DNA from: a plasmid
DNA length: 64,000 nt
Assembly: GCF_988243305.1 (NCBI RefSeq)
Contig: NZ_OZ547138.1
Strand: one strand, 5' to 3'
The position numbers are program-made. Shown in pieces: positions 36,001-42,000 of the stretch. How positions within the stretch are numbered: the first letter of the stretch is position 1; every line of letters begins with the position of its first letter.

Positions 36001-39000
36001 AGCAGCGCATTCAGTGCCCGGTGCCACTGGTCATTAACGGACCAGACGGGGAGGCGTTTGTTCAGTGCCGGTATGGCAGCGTTCTGTTGCCGGAACTGCC
36101 AGCCGGGTGGCAGCAACGGGCGTATCCAGTCACTGACGGAGCGCTGACGTGCCTCACGTAAATAAACGACGGATGACTGACCGGGTTTACCGGTCATAAC
36201 CAGTGCGGGCAGCTGTGTGGCCTGAAGGAGCGGGCGGGGAGGCAGTGCGGTACTCTGGCTGCTGACTGCGGTTGTGGGCGTCGCTGTTGTTGTCGGGCGG
36301 GGCGGCGTCACAGGGCGGGTCACCGGTGGCGGAAGCAGACGTTTTTGCGTATGGGCGATAATGGCAGCGCTTTCGCGAATTTGTCCGTCGACGAACACCA
36401 GAGCCGGAGGCGTGGTGTCAGGAACAGGCGTGGCATTAAAGGCCGTACAGCCGCTGAGTAATGACGGCAGAAGGAGTGTAAGTGATTTCTTTTTCATAGA
36501 ATAAATCCGGTATGTATCGGGTTACGGTATAAGACAGGTGGCTGGTAACAGGTCTTCAGATAAATATAATATCATCAGGATATTGATGATGAACATTCAT
36601 GTTCGGGGTGATTATGAAAACTAAAACATTCCGGTTCCGGAAATATAAAAAGAAAAACGTCCTGCTGCAAATAATAGTTTCCAGGAAACAAGTGATATTG
36701 TTACGCAATATTATGACGGACTCTTTATTGTTTTGCTCGATAGGTTTTGTGTTTATGAATATGTGTGATTCAAAATATACGTTGATTTCTGGTGAGGGTG
36801 GTTTACGTGCTGATTGTGCCGATTATTTATTCTTTGCCGTATATGCAATTGCGTTGCTAATGATAATTTTATGGATGACAGCTTCAGTTATTTATTCTAT
36901 TGAAGAATATACGAGTCAGGAAAAATACGGTAAAAGTAAAGTCTATAGTTACTTCTGGTTTTTTATCTGGTTTTTTGTTTTTAACTGTGCTGTTTATTCT
37001 TCTCTGAAGGCAATAAATATAAAAGATATAATCAGCTAATGGCAGCAGAGGGATTCACGATAAAACCAATGACGTAACCTGTTCCCGAGCAATAAAGGAC
37101 TGTTGCCGGGGATGTTTTTCGTGTATCCCATATCTTTGAATCTGTATCAGATGGCGTGTGTTCAATGACCGATAAACTGGCCGGAATGGTCGTGTTAAAA
37201 AAAATACTTAACGCGCCTGTAAATAAAGCAGCGGGAAGAGAAATGCTGGAATGATATATCCATGTGGAGAGTATCAGTGCCAGAATAGCATTTCCTGTAT
37301 TTATATAATAAAACCAGTCGTTATGGCGCAGATACCGGGTAACGGAGAGCCCCCTGGCGGACACGCCATCCGGGAAATGCAGCGCCAGAAGTAGGAGATA
37401 AATAACTGCTATTTCAGCCAGTGTAACAGGCAGCATAATGGAAAGACGTGACAGGAATGACATCAGCATGTCACTTATGACAGGATTAAGTCGTGTTGAA
37501 GATAATTCGTAAATGCCGGTTGTAAAACAGAACATATAACCCAGTCCGGCATAAGCAATAATGGAAACCGGCGTCAGTTTGTTTGATTTGTATGTTTTAT
37601 ACGTTCTCGTTGCTTCTTTAATGGTTAAAATTGTCAGCAGGGATGTGAGAATCATAACGGGTGGTATATATATGCAGATATATACCTGCAAAGGGTACTC
37701 AGTATCGTATACCCGGGTTGTTAATATAACGGACAGACTCAGTAAGGATATATTTCCGAAATGAAACCAGCGATACTGTTGAAGATACTGGAAAACAGTG
37801 ATGCCTGAAGAAAATGTCCATTTGCCGCGAGCATAAATAACAACCCAGAATAAAGAACTAATGATACATACCATCAGTATGCCGGGTAATATTGCAAAAA
37901 TAAATGATGATGTGCTCATTATTAAATCTCCATCAGCATGGTGATGCTTAAATTTTTACGGTTGTGAGGTGCGTAATAAATATCATGTGTAGTTGTGAAT
38001 AATAGCGTCAGCAACATATATAAAAATAATCTGCATTCCTGAAAAATATCGTGGTTGTGAAATATTTAATTTTTACCCCCTTTTATGGGGGATGAAAAGC
38101 AGGCTGTCAGGCTATAACTGAACGCGGTTTCTGGATTTTGGTGCTAATGTCACATCTTTCCATTCACAGCTGCTTCCGGGGATACGCTCTTTGCGTCGTA
38201 TTATACGGGAGTTCTGACACACAATAATTAAGCCATTGTCTGCCGTCTGAAATGGCATTATAGCGATGTTTATATCTTCTGTTGCAGGAATATAACTGAC
38301 TTTCTTTTCACATGTATTGGTGTATATGACAACTCTGAATTTTTCTGCGGACATTTTCAATCCTCTTTTAAACCAGAATATCCCGTGAGGGCATTCTTTG
38401 TGAAAAAGATGCCGGAAAAATTCCGGCACGGGGATTAAACCTGTTGTGGTTCTGAGTTATCCGGAGCGGTTACCGGTTCGCTGACATCCGGAACCTTTTC
38501 CGGGGCAGGCATGACCAGTGGACGTGTCAGGGCTGTAAGTCCTTCACCGGATAAACCCACCTCTTTCAGCAGGGAGTCGATGAGCGGAGCCTGTGTACGG
38601 TAAGCCAGAGCGGCGGTTACTGCCTGTTCAGCGAGATTTCCGCCACTTATGTCGGTTGTTGCTGTTTTACCGCGGGTAACACCGCCATTCAGACCATCCA
38701 CCTGAATGATTTTAATACCGTCAATGGATTTCATTGGTTCTGTGGACTTCTCTATGACGGCAGGTAATGCATCCAGCAGGGCAAGACGGAAGCGGAGGCT
38801 GGTCTGCTCATCCGAAAGCACGTTAATGGCATCGTTCAGTGCGCGCTGTGCTTCTGCTTCTGCCAGACCTTTCTGACGGGTGGCCTCCGCCAGTTCAATA
38901 ATTGCTGCTGCCTGGAGTTCGGCTGCTTCTTTTTCAGCCTGTGCGCGAACCGTCAGTTCAACCGCTTTCGTTTCAGCTTCCTGAGCAGCAGCAATCAGGG

Positions 39001-42000
39001 CAACCTGTTTGGTACGGTCGGCCTCCGCAGTCTGGCGGGTGGTTTCCACATCCTGCTGGGCCTGTACGGCCTCAGCCAGTGCTTTACTTGCCCGGGCTTC
39101 TGCCTGTGACTGCTCTTCCGATTTTGCCGCCACGGCAATGGCTCTGGCCTGGCTGGCGATTTCGGTTGCCTGCTGTTGCTCAATTTCCCGTATGGCCACT
39201 TCCCGTTCGGCTTCGACCTGGCGGGTACGCACTATCTGCTGTCGTTCGATTTCGGCTTCCTCTATCTTACGTTCAGCCAGAATTCGCGCGGATTCTGCTT
39301 CACGACGTCGTTCAGCTTCAATAGCAGCAATACTGGCACTCTGCTCTGCCGTACGGGTTTTTACCCGTTGTTGTTGCTCCAGAGTCATGAAGGCTTCCTG
39401 CTGTTCAATCTCCAGACGTCGGGAGAGTGCATCCCGGTTTTTTTCCCTGATGGCCACTTCAACATCCTGCTCAACTTCGTTGCGTTCGCGGCGACGACGT
39501 TCTGTTTCCTGGGTCAGAAGGGTCAGGCCTTCAGCATCAAAGGCATTGTCAGGATTAAAATGTACCCGTGCAGTCTGGTTGAAACTTGTCAGCGACACAC
39601 TTTCAAGCTCCAGACCGTTTTTGGATAAGTCTTCCGCAACGGTGTTCTGCACACCCTGAACAAAGTTCTCGCGGGCATCCTGTAAATCCTGCATGCTCAT
39701 TCTGGCCGCCGTGGCCCGTAGGGCATCAACAAATTTATCCTCGACCAGACTACGCAGATCTTCAGGTGTGAGCGTGCGTTGTCCCAGCGTCTGGGCTGCA
39801 GTGGATATTCCTTCGGCTGATGGTTTTACCCGAAGAAAAAAGGCAACGGCAACATCAACACGCATACGGTCGCGGGTTATGAGACTTTCAGCCGCTGCAC
39901 GACTGACTTCCAGCTTCAGGGTGTTCATGTTGACGGGAATTGTTTCGTGAAAAATGGGCATAACAATTGCACCGCCACTCATTACCACTTTTTGGCCTCC
40001 CAGACCTGTGCGGACAAAGGCCTGCTCTGCCGATGCCCGGCGGTACAGGCGGGCAAATATCAGCCCGATAACGAACAGGGTGAGGACCAGCGCTATAACG
40101 GTAAACAACCATCCCGGAAGATTAAACATAGTGAGAACCTCTGTATATGTCGGGATTAAAGAACATCCGGCCAGGGATTCAGTTCGCCCAGCCAGCGGGA
40201 ACCGGAAAGACGGCAGACAATAATCACTTTGTCTCCTCGTCTGAATTCTTTCCCGGCCTCCGGCTCCAGCAACAGGTAATGAACCTGCCCGAAGCGGTCT
40301 GTGAAGCGACCTTCACAGGGGGAACCCGCCACTGCGTGATAACCAGTGATGGTGGCCATACAGCCGATGAATGCCTCCTCGGTGAGCGCCGTTGTTTCAT
40401 CACGGGGTAACCAGGGGGCAATCAGTCTGCCGGTGCGGTGTACGAGAGGACATGTCAGCAGCAGGCAAAGTGGTGCAAGGAGAATGTTCGGGGCAGGAGC
40501 CTGCAGCAGATGAATAATAAGACCCTGCAGGAGAATGCCGGATATACCAAAAAAACCTGCCAGCATACAGAGGACGATCAGCAGGGGGATCCGTCCGATG
40601 TTCAGCCAGTCCAACGCCTCTCCTGTCAGACCCTCCGGTAAATCAGGTGTATCCATAGCTGAAGAGAGGGAGTGTCCGCAGAGCAGGGCGATAAGTTCAG
40701 CGATACCAGTAAGCAGAACAAAAGTCAGGGCTGCCAGATAGGGTGCGTTATACGCGGTAAGTAACGTCAGTGTCATTTTTCCTCCTGTGGCAGGTCAGTC
40801 AAACAACATTATGGCGTGAAGCTTCCGCTTCTTTAATTGTCAGAAGAAGCATATCGTCAGTCATCAGAAGACAAGGGGATGTCTGCAGGAGGGGATGATA
40901 ACAACAGAAGCCTCACGCCGGAATGCGCTTTATGACAACCGGAGAGGACGGATAATCAAAATTGGGACATCCACATCAGCAAACCGCTATTTGCGAAAAA
41001 AAGTCAGCGGAGAGTGGCTGCCGTTGTGGCTGTCCCGGTATTTCAGTGTAACAGGTGATTGCTGTGATCTATGCCCCATTCGGCTTTCGGTAAACCTGAA
41101 TACCCCACATGAAGAATGCGTGACAGCATGTTTCTGCCGCTGCCGTTCAGGCTGCATTCGCGTCCGTGCGCGAGTATAAAACCTTCATCCCGGAATATCT
41201 CTTCCACTTCTGAAGATTCGAGGGATGCCGGATGAATTAATGAAAATGCCACCGGTCTGAGCATTCTGCCCGTGGTGGAAAAGGTGTCTCTGGTACTGTT
41301 CAGTTGCAGGATATGACGTTTACCTGTTTGCGCACGGGAAAGTGTCTCACTCAGCAGCTGGTCGCTCCATGCGCACGTGCCAATCTGCCATCCCAGACTC
41401 CTGCACGCGGCAAGAGCCGAGCGGAAGCGGTACAGGTCGTATAATGCTGCGTTATTGCCACTTTCCAGCAGTGATTTCAGGGTGTTTGCTACCGGTATGT
41501 CTGAATTGGTGGCCAGCAGTTTTCGCAGGGTAGTGAACTCTTCAGCCATTCCTCTGAACTCGCGCATCTGACGGGCAGTGTCAAGCCAGTTCAGCAGGTA
41601 ACGCCGGCGACGCCGTTCGTTGTTTATGTTGTCCGGGGCGGTGGAGAGTGCTTCGAGCATATTCTCCAGTAACAGAATGACAGGGTTTTCCTGGGATAGA
41701 ATGGTCATAAAGGCGTCCTGAAAAAATGCCCGACAGCCGCTCTCCGTACACCCTCAGGTGTCACCGGTGCCGGGCATTGTGGAAACAGAAGGGAAAAAAA
41801 TCCCGGCCATAAAGGCCGGGAAAAGTCGTCAAATTAAGACAGCAATTTTCATGTCAACGCTCCGTCATCAGATACCAGGTGCAGGAGCAGGGCGATCCTC
41901 GACTCCGGCAGAGGCTGTGCATCAAGCCGGAGGAGGTACTGGTAACGCGCTTTTGTCAGCCAGAGGGTGGAGGCAGCATCCAGCTCCTCCCTGGCTGCCG

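Follow-up and report, generated by a model that had tools for sequence, protein, structure and literature searches.

A YqiJ/YqiK-like NfeD-flotillin gene pair downstream of traC in IncB/O/K/Z-type I-complex plasmids

The plasmid sequence considered here, a window of 64,000 nucleotides from contig NZ_OZ547138.1 (NCBI RefSeq assembly GCF_988243305.1), carries between its transfer regulators and its thin-pilus genes an NfeD-type gene and a flotillin gene. Domain content and sequence similarity identify the two as a plasmid-borne paralogue of the enterobacterial yqiJ-yqiK operon, located at the 3' terminus of the regulatory unit formed by traB and traC (Table 1). On the minus strand of the window, within 35.4-42.5 kb, the order is traB, a terminator, traC, a gap of 266 bp, the yqiJ-like gene, a gap of 26 bp and the yqiK-like gene, followed on the 3' side by a hairpin (38429-38409), pilI, a low-GC stretch with two open reading frames (ORFs), pilL and pilM. 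A preliminary description of this DNA had singled out three ORFs, and all of them are present on the minus strand where it placed them, with lengths of 206, 564 and 105 amino acids (aa), the last one called mechanically. Its reading of the first two as a yqiJ/yqiK-like pair of NfeD and SPFH/flotillin genes is borne out by Pfam domains and by BLASTP comparison with Escherichia coli K-12. It had also located the pair between the NusG-like regulator region and pilL, which is right insofar as the pair lies downstream of traB and traC, but the neighbour on the other side is pilI; since two further ORFs separate pilI from pilL, the pair is to be placed between traC and pilI and not beside pilL. Likewise, the 'small downstream ORF' is real, and turns out to be pilI, the first pil gene.

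Table 1. Features of the traB-pilL region (window coordinates).
Feature	Position	Strand	Remarks
pilL	35427-36497	-	pilM comes next
146-aa ORF	36599-37039	+	low-GC segment, opposite strand
295-aa multi-pass membrane ORF	37032-37919	-	low-GC segment
pilI	38112-38354	-	first gene of thin-pilus (type IVb) operon; 243 bp
Terminator-like hairpin	38409-38429	-	after flotillin stop, before pilI; 9-bp stem, 3-nt loop, then AUCUUUUUC
yqiK-like gene	38435-40129	-	flotillin, 564 aa
10-bp direct repeat GTCAGGGCTG, distal copy	38526-38535		junction analysis, pSCU-116-1 and pCT
yqiJ-like gene	40156-40776	-	short NfeD-type inner-membrane protein, 206 aa
10-bp direct repeat GTCAGGGCTG, proximal copy	40724-40733		within yqiJ 5' end
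traC-yqiJ intergenic region	40777-41042	-	266 bp; promoter/terminator scan
traC	41043-41708	-	positive regulator of transfer genes; shares 38% identity with R64 TraC
Intrinsic terminator, canonical	41801-41821	-	between traB and traC; 8-bp stem, 7 G-C pairs, then U7
traB	41849-42490	-	NusG/RfaH-like transfer regulator; RefSeq annotation

The flotillin exhibits the Pfam domains Band_7 (residues 35-183; 1.3e-18) and Flot (PF15975; residues 402-526; 1.3e-38), shares 82% sequence identity with K-12 YqiK (E = 0), and features (i) a single hydrophobic segment serving as its membrane anchor according to hydropathy (residues 8-26), (ii) a long Glu/Ala-rich coiled coil (residues ~200-420), and (iii) a Pro/Glu-rich C-terminal tail that is specific to the plasmid copy. 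An NfeD-like partner gene lies 26 bp upstream on the same strand, as in K-12. The protein scores 81.5 bits with the NCBIfam FloT equivalog model, for which the cut-off is 700, and by its sequence is a member of the YqiK-group flotillins and not a FloT equivalog. Among the plasmid alleles the flotillin varies in length between 534 and 582 aa, and these differences are due solely to in-frame insertions and deletions within the Glu/Ala-rich coiled coil (~residues 290-420), for example AEARASKAL in one to three copies or deletions of 15, 21 or 30 residues, with the remainder of the protein being invariant. It thus appears that the length of what is presumed to be the cage-wall helix is free to vary.

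The partner protein contains YqiJ_N (residues 10-112; 2.6e-15) and YqiJ_OB (residues 136-189; 2e-14) as its sole Pfam domains, so that a ClpP-type protease domain is absent, and is 55% identical to K-12 YqiJ (E 3e-88, BLASTP). Hydropathy peaks at residues 14-32, 65-83 and 94-112 predict about three N-terminal transmembrane helices, and Pfam assigns a soluble OB-fold (β-barrel) to the C-terminus. The gene is preceded by a strong ribosome-binding site, AGGAGGaaaaATG. A sequence search of the PDB with both proteins of the pair yielded no matches. In RefSeq the two are named 'flotillin family protein' and 'OB-fold-containing / YqiJ family / DUF1449 protein', and maps of IncB/O/K/Z plasmids in a Shigella paper mark both genes, yqiJ as well as yqiK, as coding for proteins of the inner membrane (PMC8549364); the pair is thus already annotated and is an ordinary member of the YqiJ/YqiK family. 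Our literature search found no functional study of the plasmid pair, and the comparative papers on I-complex plasmids that we checked omit it.

Selection on the pair was assessed by Nei-Gojobori counts over six plasmid alleles. The yqiK-like gene shows 20-22 synonymous versus 0-2 non-synonymous differences, corresponding to a ratio of non-synonymous to synonymous rates (dN/dS) of 0.015-0.06, and the yqiJ-like gene 6-7 versus 0-1. The ratios for traC (0.16-0.48) and pilL (0.07-0.31) reveal that the pair is constrained more tightly than these neighbouring transfer and pilus genes, and the flotillin protein is 100% identical across plasmids of E. coli, Shigella, Salmonella and Citrobacter. The counts thus indicate that intact copies are under very strong purifying selection and, by the same test, that the pair is still functional where it is present. 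Compared with K-12, dS is about 2.7-3.1, that is, saturated, and dN amounts to 0.13 for yqiK and 0.37 for yqiJ. A search for a nearer chromosomal donor of the flotillin identified none, the top non-plasmid matches in several genera all being ~79-82% identical, and the search for direct or inverted repeats that might mark the borders of a mobile element around the pair returned only short matches at chance level. Since synonymous sites are saturated, relatives roughly equidistant and mobile-element borders absent, we consider the capture to be old and the pair to be part of the plasmid backbone.

The identity of this backbone is of importance for understanding the locus. The 6.2-kb region around the pair is 100% identical to E. 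coli plasmid NZ_CP145695.1, which MOB-suite classifies as conjugative with MPF_I and an IncI-gamma/K1 replicon, and DNA of R64 and ColIb-P9 aligns to the region only weakly, with ~67-68% identity within traB and pilL. Little sequence in common with R64 has been reported for the I-complex backbone known as 'cluster 2' (IncB/O/K/Z; Lian et al. 2023, PMC10286972), and the weak similarity to R64 thus matches the window plasmid to this cluster. Hence, the IncI1 setting assumed at the outset has to be replaced by an IncB/O/K/Z-type backbone distinct from R64-type IncI1, and the suggestion that the pair might be the regular IncI1 content of this slot under other names did not survive alignment to the R64 and ColIb-P9 genes, which revealed no homologue there. 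In R64, traC is followed by traD, coding for a 188-aa membrane protein with 2-3 membrane helices (R64 sequence positions 11350-11916), and in ColIb-P9 by a 183-aa ORF with a lipoprotein-type signal (…LLSGC; ColIb-P9 sequence positions 9779-10330); neither shows significant similarity to the pair. Two later reports (PMC5801416, PMC4288162) state that within traABCD only traBC are essential, traD being non-essential, and that the IncI1 plasmid pESBL lacks traD, leaving its slot empty. The position after traC is thus a variable accessory slot across I-complex plasmids, of which yqiJK is the common, and probably the ancestral, content in the IncB/O/K/Z backbone.

The 6.2-kb region is matched by 557 PLSDB records, 258 of which contain at least 80% of the DNA of the pair. 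At least 80% of the flotillin is encoded in 266 records (264 at 95% identity or higher), nearly all of them typed as conjugative. Of the roughly 550 PLSDB plasmids that share this backbone, about 260 thus have an intact pair. It occurs with all three I-complex RepA types, namely IncI1/B/O (pCERC6; the flotillin is present in the IncB/O reference R805a, too), IncK2/Z (CP088867.1, pRHB29-C16_2 and pH2332-107) and IncI-gamma/K1 (the window plasmid and NZ_CP027372.1). Among 5426 complete E. coli genomes the plasmid pair is present in 227 and chromosomal yqiK, about 75% identical to the plasmid copy at the DNA level, in 5423. The further flotillin matches in PLSDB are less than 60% identical and reside on large alpha- and beta-proteobacterial replicons typed as non-mobilizable, and the pair is a lineage-specific feature of I-complex plasmids with the IncB/O/K/Z-type backbone. 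As an observation apart, the IncY plasmid NZ_CP122640.1 (4532-5594) and other E. coli plasmids carry an IS1-flanked piece of the chromosomal glgS-yqiJ region, the YqiJ of which is 53.7% identical to the protein of the plasmid pair. This fragment was captured from the chromosomal locus separately and recently, and is unrelated to the I-complex pair.

In the rest of the backbone's plasmids the pair is reduced to remnants, for which three alleles could be resolved. In the first one, a deletion between the two copies of the repeat GTCAGGGCTG joins yqiJ codons 1 to 17-18 in frame with the last ~29 codons of yqiK, so that a 47-aa ORF for a fusion of the YqiJ N-terminus and the YqiK C-terminus results. 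This allele is carried by pSCU-116-1 (IncK2/Z) and by the IncK1 reference pCT, and its junction is found in 96 PLSDB records. In the second allele, exemplified by pZPK-H58, yqiK is down to 181 bp (38737-38917), and its junction is found in 75 records, and in the third yqiJ is cut to about 361 bp, with IS66-family genes past the break. A few of the full-length copies also seem to be disrupted, as they give a two-piece tblastn alignment and the flotillin is not annotated.

These natural deletions bear directly on the question of whether the pair is needed for transfer. pCT is typed as conjugative and has the pair deleted. For pMS7163B, Table A of PMC10286972 lists traC at 12691..13353, an ORF '160' at 13620..13763 (144 bp) and pilI at 13844..14086; the distances between the three agree exactly with those of the first allele, and from this layout, the plasmid sequence itself being unseen, we infer that pMS7163B lacks the pair. 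pMS7163B transfers on surfaces, and its required set of 35 genes includes traBC and nothing from the slot (PMC10286972). Because pCT is typed as conjugative and pMS7163B transfers, both being devoid of the pair (the latter as judged by its layout), the pair is not required for transfer, and it is dispensable for transfer on surfaces. In the transposon (TraDIS) screen of pMS7163B the log fold change (LogFC) was -5.3 for traC and +2.58 for ORF 160 (PMC10286972). A related feature of that data set, not discussed by its authors, is the enrichment after conjugation of insertions in ORF 160 (LogFC +2.6), pilI (+2.9) and pilK (+3.2), which could stem from a polar effect that activates the pil operon or from a cost being relieved. 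Liquid mating of pMS7163B is very low (about 2e-6; PMC10286972), an effect that is not attributable to the missing pair.

How the pair is expressed can be approached from the transcription signals around it. The canonical intrinsic terminator between traB and traC folds with -20.7 kcal/mol (z = -4.5), which suggests that traC and everything downstream of it depend on TraB-assisted read-through; the terminator fits a NusG-like regulator that promotes read-through. TraB itself scores 39 bits with the NCBIfam RfaH models, which is under the cut-off, and a scan of the minus strand of the traB leader for the RfaH ops element (GGCGGTAGNNTG, at most 2 mismatches) yielded no convincing site. Within the traC-yqiJ gap, consensus scans predicted no minus-strand terminator and found no usable promoter, the sole promoter-like site ending at the start codon, and an Rfam scan over 35-45 kb, in which only the repZ pseudoknot reached its gathering score, left this gap empty. 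With neither a predicted terminator nor a usable promoter in the gap, we infer that the pair is probably co-transcribed with traBC. Downstream of the flotillin, the terminator-like hairpin folds with -13.9 kcal/mol (z = -2.9), and a promoter-like site follows it in the consensus scan.

The 243-bp gene beyond that hairpin bears the RefSeq name 'PilI type IV pilus biogenesis protein' in the identical plasmid, and its product is 32% identical to R64 PilI (E = 3e-12). The mechanical version of the ORF spans 38112-38429 (105 aa); the start of pilI is the ATG at 38354, which is preceded by the ribosome-binding site AGAGGA. A 1.3-kb segment of low GC content (34-43%; window 36600-38022) separates pilI and pilL, and in most relatives a 111-aa ORF, named pilK in pMS7163B, is found at its position; no more than 47 PLSDB records reach a coverage of 80% or above over the 6.2-kb region. 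The protein of 295 aa encoded in the segment is an orphan, with relatives among 5.8 billion proteins that are all at least 89% identical and from E. coli, and without a match in Pfam, NCBIfam, PHROG or PADLOC. It was also considered as a divergent PilJ or PilK, and no significant similarity to either R64 protein was found. On the other side of the locus, the repZ regulatory pseudoknot (Rfam PK-repZ, 173.9 bits; window 43030-43180, plus strand) lies directly upstream of the gene for a 358-aa replication initiator (43148-44224), and confirms that an I-complex replicon is situated about 540 bp away from where traB begins (42490), with no traA annotated in between.

It is tempting to speculate on a role for the pair that accounts for its position as well as its conservation. 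We put forward as the best, though tentative, reading, doubting it somewhat more than we believe it, that the pair constitutes an accessory membrane scaffold, probably co-transcribed with traBC, which buffers the membrane load of the transfer apparatus. Read-through from traBC would transcribe the pair, which would then be made when the transfer genes are on. YqiK would oligomerize into a flotillin assembly at the inner membrane, on its cytoplasmic side, and have YqiJ as its presumed membrane partner, and the assembly would act as an energy-independent scaffold or holdase that stabilizes the inner membrane, or membrane-protein clients, during insertion of the type IV secretion system and of the thin-pilus machinery including the PilN secretin. 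Transfer would then become cheaper or more efficient under some conditions, without the pair being required. Several systems studied elsewhere provide a background for this proposal. FloA-NfeD of Staphylococcus aureus confines and stabilizes unfolded membrane proteins under stress without ATP (PMC11222466), PspA envelope-stress systems have repeatedly been linked with Band-7/flotillin and YqiJ/YuaF operons (PMC11237479), and the type IV secretion system of Agrobacterium is found in detergent-resistant membranes alongside SPFH proteins (PMC8656257). Furthermore, chromosomal YqiK-GFP at native level is undetectable (PMC10434171), so that the plasmid copy could be the main source of YqiK-type flotillin.

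A number of points weigh against such a scaffold role. The intact pair is missing in about half of the backbone's plasmids, including the globally successful pCT, and any benefit must thus be slight or tied to certain conditions. Transfer and pilus machinery of the same kind is assembled by R64-type IncI1 plasmids, which do without the pair, and no other family of conjugative plasmids in PLSDB carries a similar flotillin, so that there is no recurrent association with conjugation. In Agrobacterium, the same study describes the secretion system as associating with detergent-resistant membranes independently of the SPFH proteins (PMC8656257); E. coli yqiK and quadruple SPFH mutants exhibit no growth or biofilm phenotype (PMC10434171); and the co-transcription predicted above is drawn from consensus scans only.

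The main rival explanation is that the pair is cargo of benefit to the host and unrelated to conjugation, an extra and better-expressed flotillin/NfeD copy that alters host membrane physiology and is selected via host fitness (stress or antibiotic tolerance, motility, biofilm), in which case the adjacency to traBC would be a historical accident. Strong purifying selection fits any real function, and the frequent loss of the pair with predicted conjugative ability kept speaks for cargo as well. Moreover, unrelated genes fill the slot after traC in R64 and ColIb-P9, and nothing does in pESBL (PMC5801416), so that the slot behaves like a site for accessory genes. A study of IncK blaCMY-2 plasmids, which mentions plasmid yqiK, also speculates that the gene reduces biofilm formation in transconjugants (PMC7824781). 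However, chromosomal yqiK is already near-universal in complete E. coli genomes, which makes the plasmid trait redundant unless dosage or regulation matters, chromosomal yqiK mutants have no clear phenotypes (PMC10434171), and neither a promoter of its own nor mobile-element borders were detected, unlike for typical cargo. We regard host-benefit cargo as possible, if on the whole doubtful. It appears improbable that the pair is a passenger in decay, derived from a piece of chromosome that was picked up a single time, has become neutral and is disappearing: the several loss alleles (96 records with the repeat deletion, 75 with the 181-bp remnant, and the ~361-bp yqiJ truncations next to IS66-family genes) and the conjugation of same-backbone plasmids without the pair would agree with it, but neutrality would lead one to expect dN/dS near 1 and frameshifts instead of 20-22 synonymous versus 0-2 non-synonymous changes and in-frame indels only, and in spite of the old capture the proteins are intact in about 260 plasmids.

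Very improbable, in our view, is a function in phage defence or exclusion, such as protecting the donor from pilus-specific phages or from membrane damage in an incoming attack. It draws on circumstantial evidence, that is, on the proximity of the pair to pilus genes serving as phage receptors and on the link of SPFH/flotillin operons to phage-shock-type envelope stress systems (PMC11237479), but PADLOC models (E <= 0.01) match neither protein nor the neighbouring ORFs, the neighbouring ORFs tested lack a PHROG match, and the chromosomal orthologues are not known defence genes. The location on the same strand between transfer regulators and pil operon might finally suggest a standard, required component of I-type conjugation that is known in IncI1 under other names. 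This is next to untenable, being refuted by the natural deletions: neither R64 nor ColIb-P9 has a homologue at this position, plasmids of the same backbone lack the pair and are typed as conjugative (pCT) or shown to conjugate (pMS7163B), and the published 35-gene conjugation set for the backbone includes nothing from the slot (PMC10286972). The surmise in the preliminary description that the pair is not a standard conjugation component is thus upheld, as the slot genes of R64 and ColIb-P9 are unrelated to it and plasmids devoid of it remain conjugative.

A bolder version of the accessory-scaffold reading would have the pair as a dedicated module, co-regulated with the transfer genes, that organizes or protects the donor inner membrane during assembly of the I-type secretion system and the thin pilus. 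We consider this version rather unlikely. If it were true, (i) the module would lower the cost of transfer-gene expression or raise mating efficiency, for example in liquid mating, at certain temperatures or under envelope stress, (ii) a client machinery would for the first time be defined for a bacterial flotillin on a conjugative plasmid, and (iii) the all-or-nothing pattern of near-perfect conservation or clean deletion would reflect a multimer in which defective subunits are harmful.

Independent of which role applies, the locus is of interest in several respects. IncB/O/K/Z plasmids rank as major vehicles for the CTX-M and CMY beta-lactamase genes of E. coli and Shigella, and near-isogenic plasmids with and without the pair could be used to test its effect on how costly or efficient conjugation is. 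Chromosomal yqiK mutants, being almost free of phenotypes, have told little about what flotillins do in Gram-negative bacteria; tight conservation, a defined regulatory context and natural deletion alleles turn the plasmid pair into a convenient, nearly isogenic system for the study of flotillin/NfeD function. Were the pair to have no measurable effect, one would still have to account for its very strong purifying selection. New here are the comparison with the IncI1 slot, the loss alleles and their frequencies, the existence of transferable plasmids without the pair, and the strong purifying selection on it.

Three known systems come closest to the pair. R64 traD shares with it the position directly after traC, the coding for a membrane protein and the non-essential character, and is missing in pESBL; it differs in having no sequence similarity to the pair and in being one gene for 188 aa instead of a two-gene scaffold module. 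YuaF-FloT (YuaG) of Bacillus subtilis and NfeD-FloA of S. aureus likewise combine an NfeD-type gene with an adjacent SPFH scaffold gene, and have been proposed to act as membrane-microdomain scaffolds or holdases for membrane proteins under stress (PMC11222466, PMC10434171), but their sequence relationship is distant. The third counterpart is the E. coli chromosomal yqiJ-yqiK operon, the SPFH2 group of Hinderhofer et al. 2009 (PMC2636767), which exhibits the same gene order, 26-bp spacing and Pfam architecture, with 82% identity for YqiK and 55% for YqiJ. The chromosomal copy, however, is located between glgS and ibsE/hldE and the plasmid copy downstream of traBC, the plasmid flotillin differs at its N-terminus and ends in a Pro/Glu-rich C-terminal tail of its own, and synonymous sites are saturated between the two. 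Plasmid YqiK is about as similar (79-82%) to the chromosomal copy of Escherichia as to those of Salmonella, Enterobacter, Citrobacter and Phytobacter.

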